Notes: a model not told the origin generated them from the letters alone. 64,000 nucleotides of DNA from Flaccisagitta enflata (GCA_965153355.1 OZ231126.1:29946001-30010000); one strand, 5' to 3'. Shown: positions 8,505 to 44,641, counted from the first letter of the stretch. Program-made: numbers and translations.

Positions 8505-8515
8505 TATCTATCTGA

Positions 8516-8576
<61 letters not shown>

Positions 8577-8605
8577 AATCAATATATTTTCTTTCTTTCC
8601 TTTTT

Positions 8606-8676
<71 letters not shown>

Positions 8677-8697
8677 CTCTGTCTTTCTTTCTCTCTG

Positions 8698-8769
<72 letters not shown>

Positions 8770-8844
8770 TTTTTCTTTCTTTCTGTCTTTCTTTCTTTCT
8801 GCAGCACTGTGGTACTGTCGTCTCTATCTCTTTCTCTCTCTCTT

Positions 8845-8895
<51 letters not shown>

Positions 8896-8907
8896 TTCTC
8901 TTTCTCT

Positions 8908-8987
<80 letters not shown>
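8505..8987. repeat. Compound microsatellite (TATC)n-(TTTC)n-(TGTC)n-(TC)n
   Basis: Direct reading. Confidence 0.95.
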
Positions 8988-8990
<3 letters not shown>

Positions 8991-10729: not shown

Positions 10730-10855
10730 AAGTGAAAGATGAAAAAAAAAGAAAGAAATAGAGAAGGAGAGAGAAAAATGGAGAATGTAAGGAAATAACA
10801 CAAAAGAGTGAGAGAGAAAGAAAAAAAAAGAAATAATGAAAGAAGAAATTGACGA

Positions 10856-10903
<48 letters not shown>

Positions 10904-11035
10904 AAAAAAGAAAGAAAGAGAAAAAAAGAGAAAGAAAGAAAGAAAGAAAAGAAAAAAGTGGAGAAAGAAGTGGAGAAAGAGACGAAGACAAAAAAGACAG
11001 AAAGAAGGAAGGAAAGAAGAAAGGAAGGAAGGAAA

Positions 11036-11111
<76 letters not shown>

Positions 11112-11195
11112 GAAGAAAGAAAGAAAGAATAAGTAAGAAAGAGAGAAGGAAAAAAGAAGAAAGGAAGGAAGGAAAGAAGAAAGGAAGGAAGGAAA

Positions 11196-11232
<37 letters not shown>

Positions 11233-11253
11233 AAGAAAGAAAGAAAGAAAGAT

Positions 11254-11323
<70 letters not shown>

Positions 11324-11406
11324 GAAGAAAGAAAGAAAGAATAAGTAAGAAAGAGAGAAGGAAAAAAGGAAGCAGGAAAGAGGGAAGGAAAAAGAAAGAA
11401 AGATGG

Positions 11407-11457
<51 letters not shown>

Positions 11458-11505
11458 AAAAGAAAGAAGGAAAGAAGGAAAGAAGGAAAGAAAGAGGGAT
11501 ATATG

Positions 11506-11539
<34 letters not shown>

Positions 11540-11605
11540 AAGAAAGAAAGAAAGAAAGACAGAAAGAAAGACGAAAAAGAAACAAGAAAGAAAAAGAGAA
11601 AGAAA
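10730..11605. repeat. Long (GAAA)n-rich purine tract
   Basis: Direct reading; source of the KERK/SFFL ORFs. Confidence 0.95.
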
Positions 11606-14600
11606 GGTTTGACATACGTTTCCGTGAGGTTTGCCGCTGCTACTCGGATCACGAAAGAAAATATTTTGCCAGAATATTTCCGACAATTTTTTTCTCCTAA
11701 CTTGGTTAATGTTTGAATCACTAATTGAATCTTCGCAAAAGAAGACACAATTGGTTCCTACTTTCTTCTCAGAGACTGTATTCAAGTCGGGAATGAAAGA
11801 CCTCGAAAGAAAAGAAGACCCTTGCAGCCCATCTCCCCCTGTCATCCACTCCCCCTCCCCTCCCCATAGACTTTTGTATCGTCCTCACGACGTCCCTGCC
11901 ATATCACTTCATTTGTTTTGCCTCATCTAACGGAAACCAAAGGACGGAAGATTTGACGGACGGACGGTTGGCTGGACAGGAAGATGGATGGTCGGAAGGA
12001 CGGGTAGAGGAACAAATGGCCAGATAGATGGAAAGATGTTCATAGAGTCGATTAAAACGGGCAACAAAACCACAAATGGCAAAAAAGAAAAAAAAAACAC
12101 CAAAGAACCAGGAAGCTGAAAGGAAGCACCATTGATAATTGGAGACACGGGATGTGTCAAAGAAATGGTAAATGAAGAAAAAGAAGAAAGACCAAAAGCG
12201 TTAGATGGTCAGCAGTACCCGTGCCCTGCCTAGGTAGGTTGTGCGTGAAGTTGGAGGGGGAAGCAGGGCAGCGGCCGTGTAAAGGGAAATATCTCCTTCT
12301 TCTCCTTCTTCTTCTCCTTCTTCTTTTCCTTCTTCTTCTCCTCCTCCTCCATCCCCCCCTCAAATCCCAGTCTCGAGGTCCATTTCCCAGCCCCTTTTGG
12401 GGCCGCTGCCCAAAAAGGAAAATGAATGATCCCCTCTTCATAGAAAATTTAATCTGGAAGATTTCCTTCGGGTCCTCTTCCCGTCCCAGGTTGTTGATAC
12501 GCCCCCCCTCCTCTTTTCGATCCATTCTCTTCTCCTACCCTCCCCTCTCTTTCCCATCTGTTCTCTTCCCCCCTCCTGTCCTCATCTTCTACTCCTCACC
12601 ACCATAGGCACCATCGGCGCTCATCTCCTACCCCCCTTATTCTCATTAATTTTCACCCCCCTTCTCCAGGCTTCCAGCTATTTTCATCTCCCCTCCCCAC
12701 TTTTCTGTTCCACCTCCCCATCCCAGACCTTTTGGTACTTTAAAATGTCTTTTGATATATGGCGGCTTCATCGGAAACATTTTGAATTTCGATCTAATTT
12801 CCAAAAGTAGAAGAAGAGAAAAATTGAAGAGAAAAATTGAATAGAAAAAAAAAAGAAAAAAAAAAGAAATCAGTTTTCTCATTGCTGATATTTTTCTTTT
12901 CCTTTGAATAAGCGAGAGAGCCACAATTGCGTTTTTTTTTCTCATTTTTCTTTTTGTTGTGCTGTGTTTTTGCGCGCGCGCGATTTTGCTTGAGCTATTT
13001 CTTTGACGCGCGCACGATCGTTTTCCCTTTTAACGGCGCCTCTACATGCGCGCCTCTACATGCGCGCATCTTCATGCGCGATTTTACGTAAGCGCTTTTA
13101 CTTGCGCGCTATTACATGCGATCCACTACATGCGCGCCACTTCATAAACGCTTTTATATGCGCGCCACAACATGCGCGCTACAAGTGTGCGCCCTACACG
13201 TGTGCCTAAACATATGCGCTCTAAAGCTTTCATATGCGTGCTCTGCATGCGCTCCTTTACTGTTTTAGAGAAAAACATCATCAGCTTTGGAAGAGCATTG
13301 CCTCTAAACGGATTAAGCTACAGGTGCCTTAGTTCAAACAACTTTTTGAAATACGACCAATCTGATTGTTGTAGCTTTTTTCGTTGATGAGCAGTGCTTT
13401 TCGACAGTTGATCCATGTTTTCACTTTTCATGGATGAAAGATGATTTTTTAAGTCGCGTGCTACGCAACTCTACACCCCGCTATGTCGGTCGGTCGGTCA
13501 GTCCGTGGTCCCCTTTTTACTTTTTCGGCGTTTTTGAGCTTTTTCAGCGTTTTTGGTTTTTCAGCCTATTGCTCCTGCCCAAATGCTCCAGTCACCTTCT
13601 CCAGCACTGCTCCTGCCAAGCCGCACGCGACTAGGGTGCCCGTGTATCCGGCCTTGTTTTAATTAGTGTTGCAGATCTAATTAGAAAGCACTTCAAGCTC
13701 TCCACGATAATGCGGTTCGCGTCTGCAAGCTGTCTCATCGTACGCTGTTTGCTACGCAGCCATGCCCGCCTACGCGCGTCACCCCATCTGAGCTGACGCA
13801 TTCAAAGTTGGCGGTTTCAAGAAGAACGCGCCTATCGACGCGCCTGCCGTGCACGCTTGCAACCAATCTTATACCCCCAACGCATGCCCAACCCTCAAAT
13901 CTACCCCTTTCTCTTCTCGGGTGCCCCCCTCCAACCAACCTCACCCTCAGCCCACACGTACCCATCACCTCGTATCTCTTTCCCCCTTGCCCAACTCAAA
14001 CGTATCATACCACCGCGAAACGACTAAGACATCTCAAATCCCCTCCCTCTTCTCAGGTCCCCATTCTTTACCAACATCCCCCTCACCACCCATCCATTGG
14101 TCTCTCTTTCCTTCACCCCCTTCCCCCATCCCCAGCTCATAACTCAAACGTATCAAACCACCGCGAAAAGAGTGAAGGATCTCAAATGACCCTTGAAGGC
14201 AGAAAGAGTTGGACTTTGGCCGAGGTCCTTTTTGAAATGAGGTGCCAACTGTCATGTCAAAAACCAGAAGTCCTTCAAAAAAAATGAGTGGACACAAAAT
14301 GGCTGCTGGCAGTTGGGCTGTGTGCAGACTTATGAATACAAATTGGCTAATTGAACAGTAACCAGAAGTCCTTGAAACAAAAAAGAGTGGACACAAAATG
14401 AGTGCGGGCAGTTGAACTGTGTTCACACTTGTATATACTAATGGTAGCCCTCTATGACCTCCTTAGAAGTCACTATCCGTGTCTTTTGTTTTGTTTCAAA
14501 GCGGGTAATGAATTAGGGCTCGGGGTTGTTTCTGGAAAGGTAAATGGTGCATAGCGACTTTTGACCATAATACGATCTCATCGTCGTAAGGGATGAGGCC

Positions 14601-18100: not shown

Positions 18101-21100
18101 GAATATTGAGGGTAAGGATGAAAATCAAGATGAGGTCGAGAAAGGAAATGAAGATACAAAAAAAAAAAAAAAAACACAGCGGAAATGGCACTTCTTCGAC
18201 AACACACTTAAGTCTCAAAACAGCGAAGTACTGAAGAAGTCATATCAATGATAAAAAGACCCTTACCATGAACATCGCAAAATTAGTAGACAAGTATGTG
18301 TTTGCCGTAGGGAGGTATACAAGCTGGTGATATAAACCAGATCTGTATGGGATAGATGAAAATTCATATATACGGACGGACGAGCATAAAATTCACGAAC
18401 AGAACGGAATAACCTAACGATGAAGTGGCATCTGGAGAACTTTTGTTGTTACGCGGTTGTTTCTTGAACAAACCGAAAATTTGCCATGCAAACAATAAAA
18501 AATAGAAGAACAAACACTTAAACAGCGATAAACGTTGCTCAGGCCGATGTTTATTCTCTTAACAGTGTGACAATGTCATCGTGTAAGCTCTGCTCAAGAT
18601 AACACAGTAAAGATAAAGTTTAATAACTATTTATCTCATCCACCTTTCTGGGTATTGCCAATAATGATTAATGAGCCATGGGAAACGTGGCACCTTCAAT
18701 TCACAGCTATACCTTGTTATGGTACTGCGGTGGAAATAGACTGTTTAGAATAAAAAGTCGTCGAATTTTTCAACCTCCTGACTAACCAAATTACCGATGG
18801 ACGGATCGATGGGCAGTTGAAATCAAGGCATATATAGTACGATGCATAAAAAAATTTAAATTAACGATGGACGGATCGATGGACAGTTGAAAATAAGGCA
18901 AAAAGGGGATATATAGTGCGACGCATAAAAAAAGATACAAACTTTCTATTCAAGATCTCAATGCTCAAAACTGAATTATCAAACCTTATATCATGGTTAA
19001 TCAAAAAAGTTGGAAAAAATGAAGTAATTGCCGCTGATACTAAACATTTTTGTTGATTTGTGAAGATTTTATAATCAGTTGAAGATAAGGTGTTTAACAG
19101 TTTAAGATCGATGTAAGATCTTCAAATAACTCTTAAAGTCATCTTTGATTATATCTAATTTCTTTGAAGTGAGTTTAAACTCATGAAAATCCATGACATT
19201 TGGAAAGCCCTTCAAAATATCTTCAATTTGAGTTGTTTCTGGCATCTGTAGCTCAATTCGTTTAGAAGTTATGTTTGATTGAATATAAATAGTCATTTTC
19301 TAAAAACAGCAAAGAAAGGTCACAATTTTCATTGCTGTTTTTGATACTTTATCTTTGTTTTATTATAAAATTGGGGGCTTGCTGGCAATTTCTTTATTTT
19401 TGAAACATAAAAGAATTGATTTTAAGTCACCTGAAACAGAAACTTGTATCTTGTAACTTGTATCTTGTAACTTGTATCTTGTAACTTGTATCTTGTATCT
19501 TGTATCTTGTATCTTGTATCTTTTTTCATGCAGCGCACTGTAATGTGTGAAGTATTGTAAACAACCCAGACGTGATTTTAATTTGACTTTCCTCAGACGA
19601 CAATTCCATGATTCCCTTTCCTTCGTCAAATAAGAAGTAAGACCGTAGAAAATAAGGTACTTAGTTCTGTCAAGAATCGTCGTAGAATTGTCACACAACT
19701 GTCTCCCAGTGAGTCTTTTGAGAGTTTGTTGTCATGATCTTATTACCAATAAAGGCGGCTCTCGCCGTAGGAAAAAAGTCGTAAATGCGAGGTTTGGAAT
19801 TTTTTGAGATTGTGTTTTGTCTAGTTGATTGTCTCTTTTTCTTTTTCTCTCTCTCTAGCTCTCTCCCATTCTCATTTTCTCTTTCCCCTTCTCTCTCTCT
19901 CCCTGTCCCCTGCTTTCATGTAACACGGGGTTACAATATTGTTGCAGACAGGTGGACAGAGGCATCCAACCCCCATCCACACTCCAACCCCAACCCCCAC
20001 ACACAAGCATCTAGACCGCTTGTTTTTCCACTTTTCCACTTGGACGGACAGATGGACTAACAGACCGATGGATGGACTGACAGACAAAGCCTCTCATAGA
20101 GCCCAGAGTTGAAATGAGAGAGAGAATGTGTTGCCAGGATGCACAATCATTTATCTGGGACATTTCTAAGTTCATATAGACTTCAACTAACTTGATTCCT
20201 CTTTTAGGGAAAATTAAAAAAATGCAAAGAAATAAAAAAAGATTTAAAAAATCATAGCTCCAAAACTATTGATCGCAGAGAATTCTGCTTGGCGTCATCT
20301 GAAAGAGGAGAATTAGCTCTTTCTTAGCTATTAATTTCATGCGTAGTCCCATTCTGCCCCCAAAATGCAGCAACTTTCTCAAACGCTTCATAAAACAAAT
20401 GGAAATCCGTTTTTCTCTGCAGGACTCAAAAAGACCGAAGGGACTTTGTCTCTTCGACTTTTTTCCAAATAAATAGAGGTCCGTGCTTCCGTGTTTGAGC
20501 GACGTTTTGCACTTATTGACAAAATAGCGTAGATGTGGAGCAGGGGATCAACTAAGTGGGTGAATAGATGAGCAAAAACTTGAATGACGAGCGAACGTTT
20601 GAATAAAATGTAAACTCGTCTTAACAAAATGATTCATATCATCGCATAATTTCGTATAGAATGAAAAGAGAAATTTTGGGCGACGGATAATAAACAAGGC
20701 CGGAAACACGGCTACCCAAGTCGCTTGCGGGTGGGCAGGGACAGTGATGAAAAATTCTAATCGCGCCTCTTGGCAGGAGCAGCAGTGCAAAAACCGCCCG
20801 TAAACTCCAAGAAAACTAAGCGTTATCAACCGACGGACCGACCGACGGACAGAACGGGTTATAGATTCGCGTGCATGCGACTAGAAATAATCCATTCTGG
20901 TGCAATTTCAGCATTCTTGCAAGCGGATATGATTATGCGCCCATGAACATGGCGTTTGTTCAACTTTTTTTCTATTTGGCAAATGCAGAAGTCACACAGA
21001 AGGTCCGCCTGACTTGGGATGGTTTCAATTCAAAACAACCCATAATGGGGGGTAATTTTTTACTAATGAATTTTCGTTAATTTTCATTGAAAATAGATTT

Positions 21101-21560
21101 AATGCAAAGTTGCAATTTTGAGTTTTTTTTTACAAGATAAAAAAAAAAACAACTTAAATTTTCTTAAAGAACGTGAAGAGATCTCCTGAGGATAAAAAGA
21201 ATAAAAAAACATTTTTTTTTTTTGCATTTCCGTCATTATCAACAGTCAAGTGAAGCAGCTTTGCTACTCAACTTCAGGCTATAAGCACTCAACAAATGAA
21301 AAGGAAAAGGCGGAAGGAAGGAAAAAGACCGAAGAAGCAAAGATACGATTACAACTATAAACACTTGCCTCAGTTTCAAAACTCGTACTTTAATATTTGA
21401 AGGAAGCAAGTCCTTCTAATTCCTTCGTTGGTTTGATGGCCCGTCTGTCTGTTTATCTACACGCTAGAGTAATAGTAATAGTAAGGCGTCAGAACATTAG
21501 TTTTGTTTCTTTATCAAAAAGTAATGAGTCAATTGTATTGTCGGTTAATTAAACAGTGAC

Positions 21561-22474
21561 TGTTAGAAATGTATGTCCGTCCGTTTCTTAAGTATGTGTG
21601 CTTTTGTTTCTTTTGCGTGCTTTGGCTTTTTTTCTTTCTCTATTGTTCAATGCCAGCGTCTTTTGTTTCTCGCCACTTTTTATATTGAACGCTAGATGGG
21701 TAACCATATGGTTGCGCCTTGTATTTTGTGCCATTTGTTTTTATTACGTAGGCATACATACGTAACTCGTCTTTCGTATCATCCAATTTTTGGATTGATT
21801 GATTTTATTTATTTGCGGCATTGCTTCCTAAAGTGATTGATTGATTTTTCGTGATTGATTGAATGTGCCCTTGGAATTTACTAATTTCAATAATCTCTCA
21901 TCTTTTTATTGCAGATAAACTTATGAACGGACAATTAACGTTAATTTGACTTCGACAGACTGTGGGTTGAAACCAACGAAAGTGGGCCTAAAAGTAAGTT
22001 TTTTAGACGCGTCTTTGCTTTTATTAACGTTGTTTTTATCTTGTCTTCCGGTCTGTTATTTTTGTCTTTTGCATTTTGCATTTTTATCGCCGGATTTTAG
22101 TATGGTTTTTATCGCTTGCCCGATCAGCTTACTATGGGGATGATATGGATGAATCTAATGGGATAGGCCGGGGCAGGGGCAGGTATTATCAGGTGGCATG
22201 GGCTCTGAAGAAGATGAACATGTTGTCATGTGCTGTTTCTGTCCTTTATTGTGTCCTGTCTCGATTTCATGTTATCTTTTGCGTTTGCTGATCAAAATTA
22301 ACGCCCACTTTCCCTTTCATTTTTCCCCCTCTCTTCAGTTGTTGAAATTTTTATGGAATAAACGAGACGATCGCCTTCCTATTTTCCAATCGGCCAACTT
22401 TCTTTCACCACAAGTCGTCAGTCAGATAGACGCTCATAGACAGTGCCAGTTGAAACTCGTGGGCGTAATTTATA
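21561..22474 (+). repeat. 5' LTR (914 bp shared part; may extend to ...tttcaaca at 22482)
   Basis: Starts tgttagaaatg; matches 29141-30053 apart from a small cluster of differences near 22070-22100; AATAAA at 22357-22362. Confidence 0.95.
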
Positions 22475-22536
22475 TTTCAACAATTTAAAAACGACTCGAC
22501 TCGTTACATCTTGACCTCCGAAAACGAAATTGGACA

Positions 22537-23716
22537 ATGGCGGCCGCGCGTAACGACGACACCGTCTCGACTGCTTCAACGTCATCTCGTGTATCCCACT
22601 TCGGTTTGAATCAGTGTCCGAGGTCGGATCGTTTGCGCGCAATGAGGAACGACATCACTGCGGAAATGGAAGGATGCCGGCGCCTTTTCGACGCCGTCGC
22701 CACTTGCACCGAAGGGACGAACGACTTCGACGACGCCGCCTGTGAATCAGATGGCGCTCGACACGGCCTTCGGGATATGGTGTACGACTTTATATCATAC
22801 GCAAGGCAGATGGCGCGACTCGATGCCCGGCGACCCTCTTCGATTCGCGGCGTCCACTCTGCGTCGAACCGGCGCGAATGGGATTCCATGCGTTTCTTCG
22901 ATCGTGAAAACTATCCAGAGGGTTTTCCTTCCAACGCCGACATCGTCAACGCAGTGAATAACGACATCGGGAATCGTAAAAGACCCGTCAATGAATTCTC
23001 ATGGAACAGTCTCCCAACTGACACTCACGCCGCCCGTGACAATGTTAATGGCGCTCCAACTCCAAGGATGCGAACGTCGTCGCCAAACCCCGACGGATCC
23101 GAGTACTTGCCACTTCCGGCCCCTCGACATGGTGCGCAATCTCCAACTGGCGGTCAATTCTTAAATCTGCCGCCGATCCAAAGAGGAGATGCCGTCAATC
23201 AGTGGGTCTCAGATTTGGTCTCGGAAATCGAACCTGCGCGTGCGTCTCCGACGGAGCAAGCTGACGACATGCTTGCGGATCTCGACGACGCCGATGCTCT
23301 CGCAAGAGGTCGTGGGGTCATCAACGGATTGACGCCGCAGGAGAGGGCGAGGCGACGCTTTATCAACAGGAGTGCGGAGAGAGACAGATGGGGTAGACAG
23401 CTGGAGGAGGAAATGCGACAAGGCCGTCGGCTAATAGACGATATGCAGCAGCAACAACGGGAGGAGGAGCAGCGACAGCAACAGGAGCAACAGCAGCAGC
23501 ATCAATTGCAGATGCAGCAGCAACAACTCCAACAGCAACGTCAAATCCACCGACCACAGGAGCAGCAGCAAACGATGGCTCAACGGCAGCAGCAAGAGCT
23601 GTTGCAGCAGCAGCAGTTGCAGCAACTCCAACAATTTCGTCAACAAGATCAACATCAGATCCTGCAGCCGGCGCCACAACATGTGGCTCAACAACAGCAA
23701 CAAGACGATCAACAGC

Positions 23717-23747
<31 letters not shown>

Positions 23748-26276
23748 ACAACAAGAGCTGCAACAACGTCAACCGGCAACGCAGCCGCAGGAACAACAAC
23801 AACAGCGGAAAAATGATGCAGGAGAACGTATGCAACAGCAACTGCAGCAACAACAGCAACCTTCCGCCGCGATCCCAGCGGTGGTAGTGGATCCTCCAGC
23901 GTCAAATGATCATCCTGTCGAAAGCATGAATGTTAGTGAGGAGACAGAAGAAGCGAGACAGCAACGCCTTGCAGAACAACGACTGCGCATGATGGCTGAA
24001 GGTGAAGGTGGTGGTGCAGCAACAGCCCCAAAGGTGCCGATCGCGGTGCCATTGGGATTCCAACAGCGGAGCTCATCACAAGAAGACAAAGAGTTATACG
24101 ACAGAATGTGTAACTTTCGCCAGCAGCAGCAGCGAGATGAAGATAGAAGGGCAGGAGTGTTCAACAATGCGGCAGAGATGCAACGAAGACATTGGAATAG
24201 CCTGAACGACGGCGGCATTGGTGGAGCTTTAGAGCAGCGAGATGTGAAGCTTAGACAACTGTCTGAGCTGGACAAGCAGCAGCCGCAGCATCCGTCAAAG
24301 GACCGTCGATCTATTTTCAATTTGAACTTGCAGCAACGTCATGTGCAGCCAGTGGAAACATCCGTCAAGCAGCCGATGCAGCAGCAGCAACATGTGGAGC
24401 AGCAGCAGCAGCAAGGACAGCGACAGCATCAACTGCAGCAGCAGAATGAGCAGCAACAGCATCCTGACCAGCAGCAGCAGCTTCAACATCAACAGTGGCA
24501 GCAGCAACGGTTTCAACAACAGCAACAGCATCAGTATCAGCATCATCAAACTCCAGCAGCAACGATTCTCCCTACCGCACCGGAAGTGATCTTCGAGAAG
24601 CAGATTGGTTCTGCTAGAAGGGAGACTGGTCTTCCCCATCAAGAGGAAAAGGTCTTCAACACAGCCGGAAGCGGAGGTGATGCAACGGAGGCGATGCGCA
24701 GGAGGCAGAGGCAGGAGGCCGCTGACGCGAAGTTGGCACAGCAGCTGCAAGATAAGGAGAGAAGAAAAGTCGCTCCCAAGAAGACAACGAGTGGATTGCA
24801 GCCGAAGGCGCCAAAAGTAGCGCAAGCGCCTCTAGCAACGCCTCAAGCGGAAGTCATCCAGCAGAATCAACGTTTGCAGCAAGAAGTGGATAGTTTGAAG
24901 ATGCAGATTCAGCAGAGAGACTTTGACCTTGCCGCAGCGAGAGCAGAAGAAAAACAACGAAAGAGGAACAACAACAGCGACAGTACGTCCGCCAAGATTT
25001 TGATGCTCCCGATTCCATCAAGATGATCGTCAACAACAAATGAATCAGCAAGAAGAAGTTGGGTGGAGTATAAAAACCACCAAAAAGAGATCTCCGGTAA
25101 AGTCGGGGGTCAATACGCTTTGCCCAACAACCCCAGCGTATCATCAGGTGGAGCTTCATCAAGTAGCTCGTCAACCGGAAGTCCACGTTCAGATGCCCAA
25201 TAATCCGGCTCTGGATATGTTCTTGGAGAGGGCGGCGTACAACGATTATATGCGAGCAAGGGAGGTCGGCCTCAAAGCATTGGAGAGAGCAAGACCTGAG
25301 AAGCCTCTGCAGGAGCTTTCATCCACCGATTTCATGATGTGGAAGAGGAAGTTCAAAGATGCTGAAAAGTATGAAGGCTTGACGCAAATGGACATTTTAT
25401 CGGAATTGCCTAAGTGGTTTGCTGGTCCGGCAAAGGAGATCATTGAAACTGCGACGATTGATGCAACTGAAGCGACAGCAAGAGGAGAGATTGACGACGC
25501 CTTCGCAAAATGGACGTCGTCTTTATGGCAAGGCGCTGCAACATTGCGGCGCTGTTCAACGAAATCGTCGCGGAGGCAAGATCCAGTCGGCCGACCATGC
25601 AAGGCATTTCAATTTGTCTGCAAGGTTGCAAAAGGCAAAGAAGATTGCGAGGACCTGTGGAGAAGTGCAACACTGCTATCGTGACGAGCTGCTGCAGGAA
25701 ATCCTCAATAAGAGGGTCCCTCATCTTGCAGATAAATTCTGGGAAAAGCAACATGAAGCAGCCCAAAATGGACAATTATTTTCATTCGACAACTTGGTCA
25801 ACATGATCGAGACATGGGCGGTGATTCAGCGCAACAAAGGCGCAAGCTGCAAAACAGCATCAGTGGCAGCAGTCGCAACTACAGAAAAAGAAGCGCCATC
25901 ATCATATGGGGATGCTTTGACCAATGGCAAGCAAAAGATGCAGTCGACGGACCGCTGCAACGTCTGCAGTGGAATGCATCAAACAGAAGAGTGTCATCAG
26001 CTGTTAGAGTTGGAAGTGGACGCGAGAGTTCAGAAGATCATGTCTCGTCGTCTGTGCTTCCACTGCCTCGCGCCAGGACACAACGCCAAAGGATGTGCGA
26101 ACAGACCAACTTGCCAGATCTGCAAGAAGCGGCATGCCACGATTCTCCACGGGCGCACCTACAAGAAAGAAGAAATCAACAAGTCAGAGGATGCGGCTGC
26201 AGCAGCACCAACAGCTCCGTCGACGGCGGAGACAGCCAATCCTACGGAAGTGATCTCTTCTAACGTCACGGCATGA
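22537..26276 (+). CDS. gag: BEL/Pao Gag, glutamine-rich, ~1250 aa if four apparent 1-nt deletions are repaired
   Basis: ORFs 22537-25026, 25040-25684, 25510-25806 and 25419-26276 can be joined by adding one base at ~24961, ~25009, ~25508 and ~25571; C-terminus has CNVCSGMHQTEEC, CFHCLAPGHNAKGC and CQICKKRHATILH knuckles typical of BEL Gag. Confidence 0.85.
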
Positions 26277-28061
26277 CTGGCGGCGACGGCAACGTCGCGG
26301 TCCGTCTCTTCATTCGACGACGTTGTCCGTCCGATTGTTCCAGTGACTATCATAAACAATTCTTCGGGTGCGCAGAGGACGATTTACGCTATGATCGACT
26401 CAGGCGCTGATCGCGACGTGATCAGTACCAATGTCATTCGCAGTCTTCTGATTCCAACAAAAACAGTGCAAATGACGGTGATTACCGTGGGAAGTCATGT
26501 TGTTGAGGATCGTTTCATCGCATCATTCACTATGCAATCGGTCGACGAGGAATATGTCGTCGACGTCAACGACGCATTGGTGGGTGATTTGTTAACGAGT
26601 GAACGCGACATTCCTCCTTTTCTCCGCGACCTATCTGACCAACCTCACGTCGAAAGCATAAAATTTCCAGAAGCTGAAGGCGGTGTGATGATGATCATCG
26701 GAGCGGCGCATGCGGATGCCGCCGTCGCTCAAGAAATCCGCCGAGGGCCTTCAGGATCTTTGACTTGCTTCAGATGTCTATTCGGTTGGACTGTATGTGG
26801 AAAAACGGGCAAGAGAGGACGAGATATTGCATCGATCAACGCTATCGCGACGGATGACCGTGTCCTCAACGACAACATCGATCGCATCCTCGACAATCGC
26901 GTCCTCAACAGCAACATTGACCGCATCTTCTACCATGACTTTGCATCATCAATCGTCTCGCAAGAGGAGATGGGTGATTCCCTTGAAAATGTCAGAGCGT
27001 GCAAAATGTTAGAGGAAAAGACATATTTTTGCCCAATTGCAGCAGAGGATCTTCTTCCTAAACCGGAAGTGGCGCAAGACGTCTTGGAGGAGGCGCGCAA
27101 ACAGCTCGTCAAGTCAATGCAGCGGCAACATTGTTCCGACGTTTTCGAACAATTGGAGTTGGGAAAAGCCTTTAAACCAAAAGGCCGTCGTGACTTCGTC
27201 ATCAAGGGTGAGGATGTGCTAAAGTTGAACCCTTTCGTCGATGACGACGGCGTCCTTCGCGTCGGCAGCCGATTGGAGAATGCCGACATCACACGTGACG
27301 CTAAATTTCCCTTCATCCTTCCGCCAAAAGACGAGAATGTGAAATCATTAATTCGCCATTATCATCATAATGATTTTCACGTGGGTGCAGAGCATACATT
27401 GTGCCAATTACGCCAATTTGTGTGGATTACAAAAGGTCTTCAGGCTGTCAAGAGCGTCGTCAACACGTGCTTCAGATGCCAGAAGAACTTGAAAAAGAAC
27501 GCGAATCAGCGAATGGCCAAGCTTCCGTCAAAGCGTCATCTTGCTTCCATCTCTATTGGCGCCATCCTCCACGTCGATGCCTTCAACACTGCTGTCGTCG
27601 AAGGTGAAGGAATTCTCAATCGCCGTCCTCTAACAGCGCTCAGCGGTGATCCAAATGATTCTGAGGCCCTCACACCGAATCATATCCTCAATCCATCAAC
27701 ATCCGGTCACGCCCCTCTGGATCTGGCGCAACAAGGCGTCAACTCTGACGCCGACTCAGCGAAGATTCAATGGAGGCGTGCGCAATCGCGGGTGGATGTG
27801 TTTTGGAAATCGTGGAGGGTCGAATATTTGGCGCTTCTTCACGCGCAAAGCAAATGGTCGAGATCCGAGAGAGACTTTGCGGTCGATAACATGGTCGTCG
27901 TCATGGACGAAACGCTGCCTCGTCACAATTGGAGTTTAGGACGCGTCATGGGTGTCGAAGGTTCATCAGCTCATGTCCGGAGAGCTTATCCTCGACGCCA
28001 AGATGAAAAGATCGTGACGAAAGACCGCACAAGGCGTCTGCGGCTGGAATTGGATTCATAA
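26277..28061 (+). CDS. pol: Truncated BEL Pol: aspartic protease + integrase zinc finger + C-terminal domain; no RT, RNase H or DDE core
   Basis: VVRPIVPVTI...IYAMIDSGADRDVI (protease); LNPFVDDDGVLRVGSRL..K.PFILP; H..DFHVG...WI...CFRC (HHCC); ILNRRPL..LTPNHIL; QWRRAQ..FWKSWRVEYL..W.LGRV (DUF5641-like). Same frame as gag, after a TGA. Confidence 0.9.
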   Translation: MAATATSRSVSSFDDVVRPIVPVTIINNSSGAQRTIYAMIDSGADRDVISTNVIRSLLIPTKTVQMTVITVGSHVVEDRFIASFTMQSVDEEYVVDVNDALVGDLLTSERDIPPFLRDLSDQPHVESIKFPEAEGGVMMIIGAAHADAAVAQEIRRGPSGSLTCFRCLFGWTVCGKTGKRGRDIASINAIATDDRVLNDNIDRILDNRVLNSNIDRIFYHDFASSIVSQEEMGDSLENVRACKMLEEKTYFCPIAAEDLLPKPEVAQDVLEEARKQLVKSMQRQHCSDVFEQLELGKAFKPKGRRDFVIKGEDVLKLNPFVDDDGVLRVGSRLENADITRDAKFPFILPPKDENVKSLIRHYHHNDFHVGAEHTLCQLRQFVWITKGLQAVKSVVNTCFRCQKNLKKNANQRMAKLPSKRHLASISIGAILHVDAFNTAVVEGEGILNRRPLTALSGDPNDSEALTPNHILNPSTSGHAPLDLAQQGVNSDADSAKIQWRRAQSRVDVFWKSWRVEYLALLHAQSKWSRSERDFAVDNMVVVMDETLPRHNWSLGRVMGVEGSSAHVRRAYPRRQDEKIVTKDRTRRLRLELDS

Positions 28062-29125
28062 AAAACGCTAAGTTTTGAGAGAGAGAGAGAAAAGGCGCAT
28101 GGGCCTGTCCATTAGTAACTATAGATATGAGTGATTGAAACTCTGACTTGTTATATTTACAAAGAGTTGTTATTATTCATATTTGGTTCTGATTATCCAT
28201 GCTTTCATCTTTCCTCTTGTCAATTATGTTATCCATTTCCACTCACACATCAAAACACTGATTCATTCGCTCTGTCTATATGTACATATTATTGTGCCAA
28301 AATCCGTTCTTACCATTATCAGTTCGCGATAACGAACATTTCAAGCTTCCGCTGACAACGTTATTCCATCTACGAAGTCAGTCTACATCTTGAAGTCGCT
28401 CGTCGGAGTCAAGATGTCACGTCAGCATCCGGCTCCTCCTGCGCCTTTCGATGCGGTCGCCGTTGACGACATCATTTATCGCCTTTCGCCCACGGATTGA
28501 CGAGGTGTTGGAGCTTCCGGAATGACCCGCTCGTCTCTGTAATGGAGAAGGCGCAGGTGATGTGGTCGTTCCATGATGCTTACTAATTTTTTTTTTTTTT
28601 TGCTTTTACTGATTCGTTTTTATATATAGTTAGTAATTTATTTAATTTTATCTTGTTTTGTTTGGTTCCTTGGAACATGTAAATTTTGTTGTGTTTGTTT
28701 TAGACATGGTCTTTTTAGTCATTATTACGAATACTTTCGTATGACATGTTTTAGTAGTATGCCCCTACTCATTATTTTCCACTCTTAAGTCAAATCCCAG
28801 GCTTGAGTGCTCCAAGGCCCGTTCCTTTTCCCCCTCTTCCTTAACTTTTACAGAACAGGTGCCTCAACTCGTCGCCGCCTGTCTCCATCCGCGTCATCGT
28901 GATCGAAAATTTGCTGGTGGTGGATCCTTTCCGGACGGGAATCATCTCTCGTGCAGACGTCGATCTGTTGATAGTTAGGGTGGGGATGTAAGAGGCGGTG
29001 GACGGGGGGGAGGGGCGGGGGCTGTGTCTATGTAAATTTTTTTTTAAGGAAGGTAGTATCGGTTTTTTAGTAGGGTTTCCCCGACTGGAAACTAGGTGTC
29101 GGATTTTTGAAATTCGTGAAATTCC

Positions 29126-29140
29126 AAAAATGGGGCAGAA
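29126..29140 (+). promoter_or_regulatory. Polypurine tract
   Basis: aaaaatggggcagaa immediately before the TG of the 3' LTR. Confidence 0.8.
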
Positions 29141-30053
29141 TGTTAGAAATGTATGTCCGTCCGTTTCTTAAGTATGTGTGCTTTTGTTTCTTTTGCGTGC
29201 TTTGGCTTTTTTTCTTTCTCTATTGTTCAATGCCAGCGTCTTTTGTTTCTCGCCACTTTTTATATTGAACGCTAGATGGGTAACCATATGGTTGCGCCTT
29301 GTATTTTGTGCCATTTGTTTTTATTACGTAGGCATACATACGTAACTCGTCTTTCGTATCATCCAATTTTTGGATTGATTGATTTTATTTATTTGCGGCA
29401 TTGCTTCCTAAAGTGATTGATTGATTTTTCGTGATTGATTGAATGTGCCCTTGGAATTTACTAATTTCAATAATCTCTCATCTTTTTATTGCAGATAAAC
29501 TTATGAACGGACAATTAACGTTAATTTGACTTCGACAGACTGTGGGTTGAAACCAACGAAAGTGGGCCTAAAAGTAAGTTTTTAGACGCGTCTTTGCTTT
29601 TATTAACGTTGTTTTTATCTTGTCTTCCGGTCTGTTATTTTTGTCTTTTGCCCTTTTGCATTTTTATCGCCGGATTTAGTATGGTTTTTATCGCTTGCCC
29701 GATCAGCTTACTATGGGGATGATATGGATGAATCTAATGGGATAGGCCGGGGCAGGGGCAGGTATTATCAGGTGGCATGGGCTCTGAAGAAGATGAACAT
29801 GTTGTCATGTGCTGTTTCTGTCCTTTATTGTGTCCTGTCTCGATTTCATGTTATCTTTTGCGTTTGCTGATCAAAATTAACGCCCACTTTCCCTTTCATT
29901 TTTCCCCCTCTCTTCAGTTGTTGAAATTTTTATGGAATAAACGAGACGATCGCCTTCCTATTTTCCAATCGGCCAACTTTCTTTCACCACAAGTCGTCAG
30001 TCAGATAGACGCTCATAGACAGTGCCAGTTGAAACTCGTGGGCGTAATTTATA
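29141..30053 (+). repeat. 3' LTR (913 bp)
   Basis: Direct repeat of 21561-22474, followed by TSD gtgac. Confidence 0.95.
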
Positions 30054-31044
30054 GTGACGTTTCAGACCAGTAGTTGTTTTATCAGTTAGTAATGCGTCGG
30101 ACCATTAGTTTGTTTATCAAGTAATAATGCATCAGACCATGAGCTGGTAAATCAAATAATAATAACACGCTGTTGTACAAGTTGAACGGACTAATTGGAT
30201 TGATTTTCATATCACGTGTTTACTTGTTTACATATCATTACAAAATCGTAAATATGCTCATTTTTTTAATTGAAGAGGGAAATTCGTCTTTTGTAATTTG
30301 TTCCTTGATATCAACTTCACGTGACTCTTTTACTCGCTGTGTCAGGCGGTCCGTCAGTTTATCCTTTAGGCCCGTCTATCTTTTTCTTTTTTTAACATAA
30401 TAGCGTTAAGGGTGTTTTATTTTTAGGGGATATAGGTAGTTTATTCTTTGCCACAGTGCACCTACCCTTTTTTAAAGTTCTTTTTCAGGGGTGTATATAA
30501 TTGAGTCGCCTTTGATTTTTTTTCCCTGTTTTGCGTCGTGTCGCATTTTAAAATCTATGATTATCTTCCCCAGAGTGAAACAGTGAAACAGTGTAGTTAA
30601 GGTTTCAATAGAGTTGAATTGTCTTTTACTAATCATTATTTATGATTTGGTACTGCCAAAAGATATATCTTCTTTTTTGCCCGGCCACCCGCACGCGATC
30701 GAGGCATCCAAAAATCCGTCCATGCTGTTTAAACACATTTCATTTTCTGAGGAGACTCTTTCTATTCCAAAGATGGCGTACGTGTACTTTGTGTTGATTG
30801 AATAGGCCCAGCATTTACGAGCCTTCCTCCTTTTAACATCCTTCCATCATCCTTTTATAGCTCGTCGAGGAATCATTCTCTTTACAATTCCCCCCCCCCC
30901 TTCCCCGCCCTCTTTTATTTCAAATCCCAAAAATAGTCTTCCATAATGCACAGCAAATTATTCTGCTATACTACATAAACACATCATCTCCTTAGTCCTT
31001 CCATTCCAAAACTATTCTGCATTGCCTTCAATGGGCACGCATCT

Positions 31045-38297: not shown

Positions 38298-41141
38298 CTA
38301 CTCGTTTTCAAGCACTAGATTGCGCGCAATATGAGATACGATCGGATTGTGATGTGAAAGAACAGAGCATTCAAATTTTCTTTTAGCCCTTTCGAAAAGT
38401 TCAATCAGAGACTTGTAGCCAAAGGATTCGCGTAATGTGCGTACACTTTCCCACCGATTGTAACCGAATATCAGTCGGAGAGCGTCGTTGATGGCAGTAC
38501 AACAGTCCTGCATTTGACGTGATGGATACTCCTTGACTGCCGCTGCGTATGAAAGGATAGGGACGCAGCATGAGTAGAGAAGTTGGAGTAATACCTCCTC
38601 GCTTGGTTTATTTACCGCTCTGAGTATGGAGTTGGATGCTCGGTAGAACTTTGAAAGTTCATTAGATGCGGAGAAAGTGAGACCTTTATTGCTAGCAATT
38701 GATGTGCCAAGGTAAGTGATTTTTTCCACGTACTCAATTTCGCGACCATTCAGCGTGACTGGATGTAGATTAGTGTAGTCTATTCTAGACTTTGAGAACA
38801 CTATTATCTTAGACTTGCTTGCATTGAATGACAGACCGTATTCATTGCAATAACTCGCGCATAACTGCACCATTTTGTCCAAAGCGTTTCTTGTGGGAGC
38901 CATAAGAACAAGGTCATCCGCAAATAAGATCATTGCAAGGAAAATACCAAACAAATGGCATCCTATATTTGCATCACGTAATATGGAGCATAAGTCGTCT
39001 ATGTAGCATCCAAAATAGTCCGGGGAATTTATCCCGCCTTGTTTAATGCCCAATGGCACGCGAAAATCTCTGCTGACTTCATTTGCCCATTTCACATTCG
39101 ACGTCATGTTGAGATACCAATAGACAAGGCAAATGAGAATGCATAATGGAATGTTCCTTTGGATAAGCTTAATGAAAAGACCGTAATGCGATATGCGATC
39201 GAAAGCCTTTGTGCAATCGAGAAATGCCACATAAACATTTGAGTTTTTCTCGGTAAAATGATTTACAGTGTTTTTCAAAGAGTAAAGTGCATGATCAGTG
39301 CTGGTTTTTCGCTTAAATCCGAATTGGAGATTATCTGTTTGCAGTAAATGTGACGTTTTAAGTTGTAATGCAAACTCAAATAATTTGGCAGGAAGGCAGC
39401 TGAGCGTGATGCCTCTGTAGTTGGCGGGATCTGAGAGATCACCCTGTGAATTCTTTACAATGGGCGTAATTGATCCTTTTAGAAAATCTGTAGGCACATA
39501 CCCATGTTGAATTAGACCGTTGAATAACAGGTGTAAATGACATATGAGAGTGGGACTGCCATAGAGAATGTGTTCAGGCCTGCAAACACCCGACGATGAT
39601 TTACCAAGTTTAACTTTTGAAACAACTTCTGTCATTTCAGACCATGAGAGAAGGTATGGCATAATGGTAGCATCCATATGTTGTGCTGAATAACGAGAGT
39701 AGAGCTCCTCGAATTTAGTCTTAAGTGCTATGTGTTCAGGTGTGTCATGATTGCTGTAGACGGACTCAAAATAAGTAGCAAATGTCTCCGCAATACCTTT
39801 GGGATCTGTAACCCCATTTATTCGAGTTGCCACGGTGTCTCGAGAATGATTTAGTTTCTTCCATGTCTTCCAAAAAGAGACTCCGTCCTTATTTAGAAGT
39901 TCTGTGTGCATTGCGTCATTATGTTCTTTTTCAGTCTGTCTTTTCTTCCTGCGTAATTGTATTTTGTACTGATAGTGACAATTTTTGCGACATTCGTAAA
40001 CAGGTCCACTTTTTGGGCAACCCAGAGCCTTCCAATGGTCATTGCACTCAATGGATTTTTCTTTAAGGTCAGAAAGCTCTTCATCCCAGAACGATCGTTC
40101 ATATTTTGGATTTGTCTTTGGCAGTATTGACTCTGCATTCACCAAAGCTGCCATGATGTCACAGTAATAGCGCTCCAAATCAATCTTATGGGAATCATCA
40201 ATACAACACTTATTGTCATGGAGAATTGAATGATATGGAACTTTGATATTTGACAATTGATTTTCCATAGTCTCCTGAAAGCGTGTGATGTGGTCATCTG
40301 ACAATTTCTTCCAGTTGACATATGCTGGAGTTTTGATATTTACGTGAGTAGATTCTGAGAGTGAAACTTTTAAATCCAGTTCCACTGGGCAGTGGTCCGA
40401 AAGATTGTCACCATGGGTTGAGATACGCACATTGCTCACTGAGTCCCAAAGATCATTACTCACAAGAATACCGTCTATCAAGGTATATGAATTAGTTTTG
40501 GCGTCAAAGCGTGTAAACGAAGATTTTTCATCAAAATTCACCATTTTGTCAAAGCACAAAAACAGGTCATGCTTTGCCATGAATTCGCGTATCAACTTTG
40601 AGTAAGGGTGATTCTCGCTATAAATGTTGCAATTAAGATCAGCGAGAATGATGCGTTTGCAATCTGGATATTGTTCAATAACGCTTTCCACGAAACCAAT
40701 TGTGTCACGATACAGGGACATGTATGTTTGCAAGTCCTTTGTGTTATAGAATGGAAAATAAACGTTGATAAGTAATATGGGAAATGAACTTGTTTCAAGA
40801 CGCATTATTGTGACTCGATCGTGTATATGGGTGAGGATTGGTTTGATGGCATTTGAATATTTTTTGTTGTATATAAACGCTGTGCCTCCAAACGGTCGTC
40901 CTTTTACTATGCGTGTTTGAACTGCGTCCTTCATTGCTGATGTGCCGAAGCTATCAAAATTTGTATGGAGAGATCTAATTTGGTTCACACCACTATGGTT
41001 TTTATAGGGAGGCTTTAGCCAATGTTCCTGAATGGCACGAATGGAATTGGGATTATGTTCACACTGAGAGTGAAGAAAGTTTTTGTTTCGCGAAAAGCCA
41101 TTAATGTTTTGAGTGGAAATAGTAATATTAACTGGATCCAT
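38298..41141 (-). CDS. LINE ORF2: apurinic-like endonuclease + reverse transcriptase (947 aa)
   Basis: APE motifs QNINGF, IQEHWL, GRPFGG, ADLN, IDGIL, SDHCPV; RT motifs NYRGITL, QFGFK, FLDCTKAFD, GIKQGG, LFADD, YLG. Confidence 0.97.
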   Translation of the reverse strand: MDPVNITISTQNINGFSRNKNFLHSQCEHNPNSIRAIQEHWLKPPYKNHSGVNQIRSLHTNFDSFGTSAMKDAVQTRIVKGRPFGGTAFIYNKKYSNAIKPILTHIHDRVTIMRLETSSFPILLINVYFPFYNTKDLQTYMSLYRDTIGFVESVIEQYPDCKRIILADLNCNIYSENHPYSKLIREFMAKHDLFLCFDKMVNFDEKSSFTRFDAKTNSYTLIDGILVSNDLWDSVSNVRISTHGDNLSDHCPVELDLKVSLSESTHVNIKTPAYVNWKKLSDDHITRFQETMENQLSNIKVPYHSILHDNKCCIDDSHKIDLERYYCDIMAALVNAESILPKTNPKYERSFWDEELSDLKEKSIECNDHWKALGCPKSGPVYECRKNCHYQYKIQLRRKKRQTEKEHNDAMHTELLNKDGVSFWKTWKKLNHSRDTVATRINGVTDPKGIAETFATYFESVYSNHDTPEHIALKTKFEELYSRYSAQHMDATIMPYLLSWSEMTEVVSKVKLGKSSSGVCRPEHILYGSPTLICHLHLLFNGLIQHGYVPTDFLKGSITPIVKNSQGDLSDPANYRGITLSCLPAKLFEFALQLKTSHLLQTDNLQFGFKRKTSTDHALYSLKNTVNHFTEKNSNVYVAFLDCTKAFDRISHYGLFIKLIQRNIPLCILICLVYWYLNMTSNVKWANEVSRDFRVPLGIKQGGINSPDYFGCYIDDLCSILRDANIGCHLFGIFLAMILFADDLVLMAPTRNALDKMVQLCASYCNEYGLSFNASKSKIIVFSKSRIDYTNLHPVTLNGREIEYVEKITYLGTSIASNKGLTFSASNELSKFYRASNSILRAVNKPSEEVLLQLLYSCCVPILSYAAAVKEYPSRQMQDCCTAINDALRLIFGYNRWESVRTLRESFGYKSLIELFERAKRKFECSVLSHHNPIVSHIARNLVLENE

Positions 41142-41604
41142 TGTTTCCGTTTGAGTTCATGGGCACACCATCACGAATTTTTGGAGCATAAAATCTCCTT
41201 ACTACAACGCCTTCTGGTAGCTCGAAGCTATCACTTTTCAAAGTATCCAAGTCTTTCTTTCGTATGCACACTTTGAAGCTCTTAAAACGATTATGAGGCA
41301 TATTCAGTTCCTCGGCCTCAACCACAGGCACTCCTTGGTCTTCAATGTTGAACTTAACGACATCAACACTCGTACTAGTATCAAAATATCCGAGGTACAG
41401 ATTTGTGGTTAAATCTGCCCCTCGCCACAATCTCAGTCCATCCGAAACTTTTTTCCCAATGACTATATCGGGTGATTTTCGATTTGGCCGAGAAGTCGAT
41501 TGACCATTTCCAGCTGAACGCGCAGTGATACCATTGTTTCTGCCGTTACGACCACTGTTGTTGTTATGAATGCGACCATCGCGGTTGAGACTGCCGACGC
41601 CGCG

Positions 41605-41683
<79 letters not shown>

Positions 41684-41689
41684 ATACGC

Positions 41690-41729
<40 letters not shown>

Positions 41730-41767
41730 GACGCTGTTGTTGTTGTTGACGCTGTTGTTGTTGACCC

Positions 41768-41810
<43 letters not shown>

Positions 41811-41815
41811 GACGC

Positions 41816-41862
<47 letters not shown>

Positions 41863-42936
41863 CTTAGCCGCGTCTCCGACTGTCGACGGCGATGGTGATG
41901 AAACAGCTATCGTAGCTGTCGTTGAGGTTGTTGTTGTCGACGGTGATGAAACACCACCCGTCATTAGGGCCGTCATCAACGCTGAAGGCGCCACTGACGT
42001 AGATGATAGGGAAGTAGCAGTTGTAACCACTGTCGAGAAAGTCGCTGTTGCAGCAGGGTGAGCAGCGGCTCCTAAATGACTCAAATCTTTGTCATCGTCG
42101 CCGCCAGACTCACCACCACCACCAATTCCGCCGGCGTCGTCCGTATTGTCGACTCCGCTTTTGCTGTTGTTGACACTATTGAGCGTAGGCCCGTCGCCGC
42201 CGTCAACAATGCCAATGTTTATTTCCGCGCCGCCGCCAGCCTCGCCGCCGATGTCGCCGCTAATGACGCCGCCGGCAGCGCCGCTGATAACGCCGTCGCC
42301 GTCGCCGCCGATAACGCCGCCACCAGCGCCGCGGATTACGTGCCGGTCGGTGACGTCACTGCGATCGTTGTCGTCATATCGCGGAAGCGCCAAATCTTTG
42401 GACGGATGTCGTGAAGGCGTTGGCATCACTCTCCGACTTGGCGATGAGAAAGGAGACGCAGATATAGCAGGTCTCGAGATGAGATTTGACATCAGCTTCA
42501 AAGCTGTCATAATTTCACTTTTGAATGAGTCTAACTGATCGCGTGTAACAAAGCAGTCTTTGCGCATATTAAGTAGAGTTCCATGAATTTGAGAGTTAGA
42601 AATCGAGCCATCTTCAGAGTGCGGAATGTTACTGTATTCCATAGCGACGCAAACTGGTTGCCAATCACCTCTGCCATCGCGCGTTTCCATCTCAAGTAAT
42701 ATGTCATGTAAGTCTTTGACTTTTTTGTCGGCAACACGCCGTTTCATAGCGGTTTTCCCGATGGCCATAAAATAGATTTCCTTTTGACGCCAAACATATT
42801 CGTCATCATGGTAAAACTTGTCGCAGTTTTTTATTATGTCATCATGTGGAATCGTTTGGAGTTTATTTTGCATATAGAACAATAGGTCCGAAACGACTAT
42901 TTTGTCCGTTTCCTTCACATATATATTCTTTTCCAT
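41128..42936 (-). CDS. LINE ORF1 (602 aa) with Gly-rich, Ser/Thr-rich and poly-Q linker and RRM-like C-terminus
   Basis: N-terminal DLLFYMQNKL..IIKNCDKFY..KRR..KDLHDIL motif and C-terminal LYLG..T..SFKV..LPEGVVVRRF motif, both familiar from ORF1 of invertebrate LINEs; 14-nt overlap with ORF2. Confidence 0.9.
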
Positions 42937-44641
42937 CGTGTCATATCAAAATTCAGTGGCCCACTGGCCAGGATAGATTTCTGCCGTTAATGACCGGTGA
43001 GATCCTCGTGGTTTAGGATTATCCGTAGGGAAAAAAAAAATCGAGAAAATATTCTTGCTTGGAGCGGAGAGGTCTTTCTCTCACGAAGTCGATGGTTTAG
43101 ATTTTAAACAAGTGAAGTAGTAGAAATTAGCTTGCAATTTTAAAAAACGTAACACCGGTAATTCGCATGTTGGCGTTAGCTTATTCTTTACTTAGTCTCC
43201 ACTTTCCCCATTATTGAGCTCGTGTAAGGGCAAATTTTTTTCCTTCATACTTCGTTAGTCATTCATTTTTCATGTTTTCTTGCTCGGCCTATATACTCTT
43301 TCCTGTTTGCTGCCGTCTTCGTCTTCATCAAAAATGTGGGTCCTCTATGCTTCACACATGTGGAAATTTCTCCTTCTTCTCTTTCTCCATCTACGTCCAT
43401 CCCCCCTCCACTTCATGACCCAAATTTGATCAAATTCTGCCAAATCCCGCCAAATCTGGTCGAATTTGGCCAAATTTGGCCAAATTCAGAAAAAATTCTG
43501 CCAAATTCTGCCCAAATATACCTAAATTCCAAACTCAAAGCCAGGGCTGCAGAAAATTTTTTTGCTTCCTACGAGCGCAATTTGCCCCTGTCTACATTCC
43601 TATTGCATGGCGTCCAGGAACAAACCCTAGGTCTAAAAAAATGGTCAAGACTCCTGACCTAGGGAAATGTTTTTTTGGATGCACTAGCTACAAATTAATG
43701 ATAAAAATAAAAAGATCTGCTTAGAAATATAGAATTGATGGTCAAATGATAGCCAAAAATTTTTTAGGCATATCTTTGATTAAAAATTGTATTCATGGCT
43801 TTTAAAAGTATGTAGAAATGCATGAAAAGTTTGGCTACAGTGGTTGCACTAATGCTGTTACCTACTTCAGTTAGTTTAGAGTGATAATCCAAAAATAAAA
43901 ACCAAAAAATGCCAAAAACTGTTGTAAAATGACTATTTTATGTTATTTTTTTTGCTATTTTTAAGCTTTAATCCATCAAATATTTCTCAAAACTAGCTGG
44001 ATTATATACCAGCATGTGTATCTCAACAATGTTTATACACTTTTCATAGTCTTTAAGAATTTTAAAGAAGTAATAATGGAAATAGGCTGAAAAAAATCAA
44101 TTTGATAGTTTGAAATAGTTTTTTTTAGTTTTTATCTATAAAACAACCCTCTAAACTTACTAGATAGGTAAAAGCATTATTGCAGCAACTATTGCCACAC
44201 TTTTCAGATATTTTGTAAACAGCTTGAAGCTACAATCATAATTTCTGATACAAAAAATATATAAAAATGTTTCATTTTTACTATCTTTAAGCTTTGAATT
44301 CTATATTTCCAAACAATCCAGCTCTGTGGCCCAGATCCCAGCCCCAACACTCAAAACCCCAGCCCAAAGGCCTAAATCTCAGCCCGAAGGCCAAAATCCC
44401 AACCAATAGAAAAAGAAGGAGAAATTTCCTCATGTGTGAAAGCATAGGTCACCGGCCCCTTCGAGGCCGCTGCCCTGCTCCCCTCAACTTCAATTATAAC
44501 TTACTAAAGTAGGGCATGGATACCGCGGACCATCAAACGTTTTTGCGACTATTTGACCTATTTTGCGCATGTTCTTCCTCCATTCTTTCTTGTTCTTTCC
44601 ACCATTTTTGTCTCCCTTTACCCATTTAGATTCACGTCTTT

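Follow-up and report, generated by a model that had tools for sequence, protein, structure and literature searches.

A recently inserted BEL/Pao retrotransposon copy from Flaccisagitta enflata that lost its reverse transcriptase and integrase core regions through two in-frame pol deletions

LTR retrotransposons that have lost internal sequence and ride on their full-length relatives are well known, and the copy described here adds another case. Among plants, the LARD, TRIM and TR-GAG elements carry neither reverse transcriptase (RT) nor integrase and rely on autonomous families, with TR-GAG retaining gag alone. In the mouse, a 1.9-kb internal deletion gives the IAP I-delta-1 element a gag-pol fusion frame; although non-autonomous, this element is the principal source of new insertions, and the fusion protein has been shown to work in cis (PMC6466679). 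ETn/MusD and VL30/MLV are further mouse systems in which non-autonomous LTR elements are amplified by the proteins of a coding-competent partner (PMC6466679).

Here, we analyzed a 64,000-nucleotide stretch of DNA from Flaccisagitta enflata (hereafter the window), following up an earlier note on a BEL element within it. The closest analogue of the window copy is mouse IAP I-delta-1, which is likewise an internally deleted LTR element with an open frame and dependence on full-length relatives. As expected of such a non-autonomous deletion derivative, the window copy has kept its LTRs and polypurine tract and is missing RT and the integrase core. However, IAP I-delta-1 is described as a class II ERV with gag fused to pol, whereas the window copy is of BEL/Pao type, carries two deletions within pol and has a frame-broken gag. 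ETn and VL30 have lost essentially all of their coding sequence, whereas the window copy keeps gag, protease and integrase remnants with 85-94% identity to the partner; LARD, TRIM and TR-GAG of plants are Ty1/Ty3 derivatives, mostly old and without recognisable pol, whereas the window copy is recent, BEL/Pao and marine. Autonomous BEL/Pao elements (Belpaoviridae) are represented in our comparison by the protein P0001, with Peptidase_A17, H2C2, rve and DUF5641 in the usual order. Like them, the window copy has three Cys/His knuckles in Gag and a 5-bp target duplication; unlike them, it is without RT, RNase H region and integrase core, and its LTRs end in TA. Its Gag spans about 1250 codons, in contrast to 782-935 in the relatives listed. 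Among the papers listed in the literature searches, none described a BEL/Pao lineage with these two deletions.

A single LTR retrotransposon occupies positions 21561-30053 of the window (Table 1). The young insertion with near-identical LTRs proposed in the earlier note was borne out: global alignment of the full-length LTR pair (914 and 913 nt) showed four differences, comprising one substitution and three one-letter indels, and GTGAC immediately flanks the element on both sides. A perfect 5-bp target duplication of this kind is what an integrase-made insertion leaves behind. The 3' LTR is adjoined by a purine-rich tract, and the open frames inside the element are one of 845 codons from stop to stop (22489-25026), two gag frames that overlap each other (25004-25684 and 25383-26276), and the 594-codon pol frame (26277-28061). 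The LTRs start with TG and end in TA instead of CA (21561-21566, 22469-22500, 30048-30053). Reading of the sequence after the 5' LTR revealed no primer-binding site of the usual TGG type, and the tRNA and Rfam scans of the window returned no match, so no primer-binding site was assigned.

Table 1. Positions of the parts of the element, in window coordinates
Feature	Position	Strand	Basis
Left target-site duplication, GTGAC	21556..21560	+	Read directly; identical 5 letters after 3' LTR
5' LTR, 914 nt, TG start, TA end	21561..22474	+	BLAST and MAFFT against 3' LTR
N-terminal part of long Gag (ORF1, 829 codons, Q-rich middle), frame 1	22537..25026	+	ORF list, hhalign
Gag middle part, frame 2; break from ORF1 within ~25004-25026	25022..25506	+	tblastn of P0104, P0109, P0113
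Short Gag stretch, frame 1, between breaks at ~25506 and ~25577	25507..25577	+	tblastn of P0097
Gag C-terminal part, three Cys/His knuckles, in-frame TGA (26274-26276) at end	25578..26276	+	Translations
Protease segment of pol, aa 39-254, DSGA motif	26391..27038	+	94% identical to P0001 1-215
Junction 1, RT/Peptidase_A17/RNase H region missing (~624 codons)	27038..27039	+	BLASTP, contig ends
Pre-integrase linker and H2C2 zinc finger (Pfam aa 353-404 = 27333-27488)	27039..27532	+	85% identical to P0001 840-1005
Junction 2, integrase DDE core missing (133 codons)	27531..27533	+	2 letters common to both sides
Integrase C-terminal part, DUF5641 (aa 498-575), stop codon	27533..28061	+	91% identical to P0001 1137-1312
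Non-coding 3' region, purine-rich tract (29126-29140) at end	28062..29140	+	Three-frame translation without long frame
3' LTR, 913 nt	29141..30053	+	BLAST and MAFFT against 5' LTR
Right target-site duplication, GTGAC	30054..30058	+	Sequence read

The pol frame is open over all 594 codons. Pfam recognized in it Integrase_H2C2 (aa 353-404), DUF5641 (aa 498-575) and, beyond these, weak aspartyl-protease matches only, with no match to RVT_1, Peptidase_A17 or rve, in line with the earlier reading of this frame. A search for longer relatives identified 75 proteins among 7,999 candidates, of which the best was P0001 (1312 aa, cluster of 113 sequences). BLASTP aligned the two proteins in three collinear blocks: window aa 39-253 with P0001 1-215 (94% identical), aa 255-420 with 840-1005 (85%) and aa 419-594 with 1137-1312 (91%). 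Hence approximately 624 and 133 residues are absent from the window pol. The absent parts of P0001 hold RVT_1 (337-472, weak), Peptidase_A17 (525-696, E 5e-29) and rve (1022-1123, weak), and P0001 has H2C2 and DUF5641 as well, all in the usual BEL/Pao order; of this Pao-type set the window copy has DUF5641 and H2C2 alone. The two in-frame deletions claimed beforehand were therefore confirmed, one having taken the RT/Peptidase_A17/RNase H region and the other the DDE core, and the BEL/Pao type named in the earlier note was supported. Moreover, tblastn of P0001 over all 64 kb gave nothing beyond the three pol blocks, so no RT or rve remnant lies elsewhere in the window.

Our preferred explanation, to which we give a probability of about 0.72, is that this is a non-autonomous, decaying, pol-deleted BEL/Pao copy, mobilised in trans and not itself a protein donor, whose open frame is owed mostly to its youth. 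Two internal deletions would have taken out RT/RNase H and the catalytic core of integrase, most likely by template switching in reverse transcription or by end joining, since there are just 0-2 shared letters at the junctions. The copy, or at least an ancestor already deleted for the integrase core, would have been transcribed, packaged, reverse-transcribed and integrated by proteins presumably supplied in trans by full-length relatives, an integration that left the 5-bp duplication and the near-identical LTRs observed here. With a Gag broken in about three places, a TGA before pol and a drifting integrase remnant, the copy would have no protein-donor role.

The Gag of the family is unusually long, at about 1250 codons (22537-26276), with a conserved N-terminal domain and a long glutamine-rich, coiled-coil-like middle; in the window copy its first 829 codons form an open frame of their own. 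In hhalign, residues 5-188 of ORF1 matched residues 12-187 of four Gag relatives of 869-905 aa (probability 96.7%, E 3.3e-10), and on this profile alignment the 845-codon upstream frame is read as the N-terminal portion of this Gag. Pfam assigned no family to the gag pieces and ORF1, DUF1759 being unmatched at E<=0.1; more distant relatives from the pol search carry PF03564. The three Cys/His motifs lie within 25900-26150. The gag C-terminal query, run against 1.84 billion representatives, obtained 6,673 matches at E<=0.001, several of them Gag proteins of 782-935 aa in a single frame with the query at their C-terminal end.

The frames of gag were mapped by tblastn of six Gag relatives onto the element. 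Homology runs in the frame mod3=2 from 25022/25238 to ~25549, in mod3=1 over 25510-25581 and in mod3=0 over 25572-26189, and P0097 (63% identical) is continuous across these changes. Among the run contigs, one-letter length differences between copies fall at exactly 25506 and 25577; a length difference at 25007 alone fails to join ORF1 to the next gag frame. The window state accounts for 0.60 of the summed depth at 25506 and 0.78 at 25577 in the run X1 and is thus private at neither place. Two RNA runs are mostly in the other state, which the X15 contigs show at both places, and an X17 contig has the window state at 25506. We infer that the gag breaks are older than the insertion and that copies with a broken gag are common within the family.

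Gag and pol share one frame and are parted by a single TGA (26274-26276) followed by C. This TGA and its surroundings are unchanged (around 618-623) in L001, a 96%-identical metagenome contig, and the stop codon is therefore probably the normal read-through site of the family, which suggests that Gag-Pol may be made by stop-codon read-through. Compared with the window at 26175/26176, L001 is also longer by 54 letters (18 codons, in frame; its positions 466-519) in the gag C-terminal tail. Ribosomes that start on gag cannot reach the pol remnant in this copy, given the roughly three frame breaks on the way. The earlier proposal that the copy supplies Gag, protease, the zinc finger and the C-terminal domain was not supported, as gag lies in three frames, pol is preceded by a TGA and constraint on the integrase remnant is relaxed.

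Constraint on the retained pol segments was assessed in an alignment of the window pol with P0076, P0001, P0002, P0003, P0078 and P0094, with sites identical in three full-length proteins taken as invariant. None of the 96 invariant sites of the protease segment was changed in the window, as was also the case in P0094. Past junction 1, the window pol had changes at 13 of 178 invariant sites, compared with 2 of 178 in P0076 (Fisher p=0.006), and within the window the protease segment differed from the part downstream of junction 1 as well (p=0.005). About 34 residues are new in the window in this downstream part, at 21 of 162 variable versus 13 of 178 invariant sites (p=0.10). Eight of the nine private nucleotide differences in pol listed among the best 40 of 495 places, a non-random sample, are non-synonymous. 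Over the protease part, the window and L001 differ at 15 positions, too few to weigh, of which seven are third, six first and two second codon positions, with five of the first-position differences in one cluster. The integrase remnant has drifted, and the protease part is as good as in full-length copies. The test for purifying selection on the integrase remnant came out negative, and the protease segment alone looks conserved. These results fit a mosaic history, in which an old and unconstrained lineage with deletion 2 was joined by a recent deletion 1 to a well-kept 5' part; conservation of the protease could also reflect constraint on the protease alone.

Both deletions preserve the frame, and the junction positions given in the earlier note (~27035 and ~27535) were right within a few bases: junction 1 falls between two codons, at 27038|27039, with 0-1 shared letters, and junction 2 is at 27531-27533. 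Contigs from four public runs were compared with 21000-30600 of the window. An RNA-library contig of 1608 nt matches 26391-27037 and then diverges from the window, another RNA contig of 1519 nt matches only 27039-27532 and has 452 and 573 extra letters at its sides, and loose contig ends occur before 27039 in X1 (DNA) and X17 (RNA) and behind 27532 in X3 (DNA). The contigs that depart at 27037, 27039 and 27532 are the full-length form, which is present in the organism's DNA, in one marine metagenome and in RNA libraries. A full-length partner, as anticipated beforehand, therefore exists, both as the 85-94% identical P0001 and as RNA contigs running on into the missing parts; it is likely expressed, with the reservation that RNA libraries can contain DNA. 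Splicing was considered as a source of deletion 1 and rejected, the sequence of the full-length contigs before 27039 having no AG end. Among the contigs listed, none bridges junction 1 or junction 2, and short joints in X1, with sides of 20-24 letters, were left out of the junction evidence.

Of the two junctions, junction 2 recurs in the independent protein P0076, and junction 1 was found in none of the other sequences searched. A search for proteins of similar length gave 18 matches among 7,998 candidates, none covering more than 57% of the query. Among the five of these 18 that were inspected, P0076 has exactly the junction-2 peptide (…MAKLPSKRHLASISIG…), residue for residue, and it shares with the window the derived residues R412, K415 and I427 flanking junction 2, which P0001 does not have. 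P0076 extends upstream into RNase H-side sequence and, as recorded, is without deletion 1. Its source label points to a protein-level assembly of marine eukaryotic transcript reads, from an RNA-derived marine catalogue; if so, junction 2 is real, but the link to the upstream part could be chimeric. A search for shorter proteins, centered on junction 1, yielded three matches among 53 candidates, two of which run on into RT-side sequence, with the third ending there in another frame, fitting the full-length form. Junction 1 was accordingly found in 0 of 18 similar-length and 0 of 3 shorter matches (0 of 21 together). The scan of viral contigs with the pol protein produced 34 pattern matches and no relatives, and the scan of metagenome contigs 323 pattern matches and one relative, the 1165-nt L001, which spans the gag C-terminus and protease only and includes neither junction. 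Judging from these sequences, deletion 2 appears to mark more than the window copy, and deletion 1 has so far turned up in this copy alone; the older of the two is probably deletion 2, common to a sub-lineage, and deletion 1 is probably recent and possibly private.

Given that no independent sequence carries junction 1, deletion 1 may postdate the insertion. According to this alternative, a full-length copy or one with deletion 2 only was inserted, deletion 1 arose later in place, and the double-deleted form never transposed. Junction 1 is seen in no other sequence searched, as this would predict, and an intact protease next to a more decayed 3' part fits a recent join of two histories. However, LTRs that differ by one substitution and three indels leave little time in place, the clean codon-boundary junction is equally typical of template switching, and the searches that missed junction 1 were shallow, with 53 candidates in the junction-centred one. 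We therefore regard a deletion in place as unlikely.

Next comes the meaning of the open frame. On the decaying-copy explanation that we prefer, the 594 codons stayed open mainly because the copy is young and because the two deletions happened to be multiples of three. The chance that two deletions are both in frame is 1 in 9. Among the 5,346 possible substitutions in the pol frame, 198 (3.7%) make a stop, and the frame stays open with a probability of 0.71 after 9 random substitutions and 0.18 after 46. Taken alone, the open frame is mildly unlikely. Since the family is huge and this copy was noticed for its open frame, we did not take the frame as evidence of function.

A rival account holds that the copy belongs to a selected non-autonomous lineage, in which a protein made of protease, zinc finger and C-terminal domain either helps its own RNA in cis, like the IAP I-delta-1 fusion protein, or acts as an interfering or dominant-negative partner of the full-length element. 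It is favoured by two deletions that are both in frame, by 594 codons without stop or frameshift despite the ~34 new residues, and by a protease segment as free of changes at its invariant sites as that of a full-length copy; these points also count against the decaying-copy explanation, as do the lack of a recognised primer-binding site, the absence of junction-bridging contigs among those listed and the sister-family protein P0082. The recurrence of junction 2 in P0076, the RT-less open frame of P0082 as a parallel case and the somewhat rarer change at invariant than at variable sites downstream of junction 1 lend this account further support. However, normal gag-pol translation cannot reach the frame through about three gag frame changes and the TGA, and the earlier suggestion of a dominant-negative or defective-interfering partner is unsupported. 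In addition, the integrase remnant has 13 conserved residues exchanged, compared with 2 in P0076, the private changes listed among the best 40 of 495 places are non-synonymous in eight of nine cases, junction 1 recurs in neither set of database matches, and the parallel with P0082 is biased because protein databases hold open frames only. A selected lineage is accordingly also improbable in our judgment.

The sister-family protein P0082 itself is an RT-less open frame of 555 aa (cluster of 31 sequences) from a family about 52% identical (P0003). Its left break is 4 residues from junction 1 of the window, and its protease part is better kept (79%) than its integrase remnants (44-64%). A bolder reading would be that derivatives without RT and integrase core, but with protease and the integrase ends kept, arise repeatedly in this clade, that the frame-preserving ones are favoured and that the window copy is a decayed member of them; an open frame might then help the RNA by sparing it nonsense-mediated decay or by yielding a fusion protein that acts in cis, as IAP I-delta-1 does. 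We consider this reading quite doubtful. Finally, an assembly artefact, that is, mis-joins in a very high-copy repeat, is highly improbable: the summed contig depth of the family in X1 exceeds the flanks by 3-4 orders of magnitude and neither junction is bridged among the contigs listed, but junction 2 occurs independently in P0076, the 0-2 letters shared at the junctions fall far short of the long repeats on which assembly collapses depend, and the LTRs are matched and the target duplication perfect.

The summed depth of the family in X1 over 21642-29987 amounts to 1.6e5-8.1e5 per bin, compared with 58-104 for the flank contigs, values that are not copy numbers. Parts of the element were detected in runs of 11 studies, mostly marine metagenomes, 6 of them RNA libraries. 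These data point to a very abundant and probably expressed family. Elsewhere in the window, the minus strand at 38298-42945 contains two long overlapping frames of 952 and 605 codons, the first with RVT_1 (E 4e-25) and without integrase, which probably represent another retroelement, of non-LTR type. Tandem or satellite arrays and simple repeats were observed at 6285-7354, 7971-8280, 8501-9000, 10725-11606, 46690-47100, 52038-52138, 53390-53573 and 61741-61882; the unit of the array at 6285-8280 is about 36 nt, and some arrays are mutually inverted.

As it stands, the window copy is a case of ordinary transposon decay, and it would become weightier only if frame-preserving deleted forms proved to be over-represented or translated. 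Its exact junctions document a very high-copy marine BEL/Pao family that sheds its enzyme cores yet is still inserting, and junction 2 provides a marker with which the non-autonomous sub-lineage can be tracked in ocean metagenomes.
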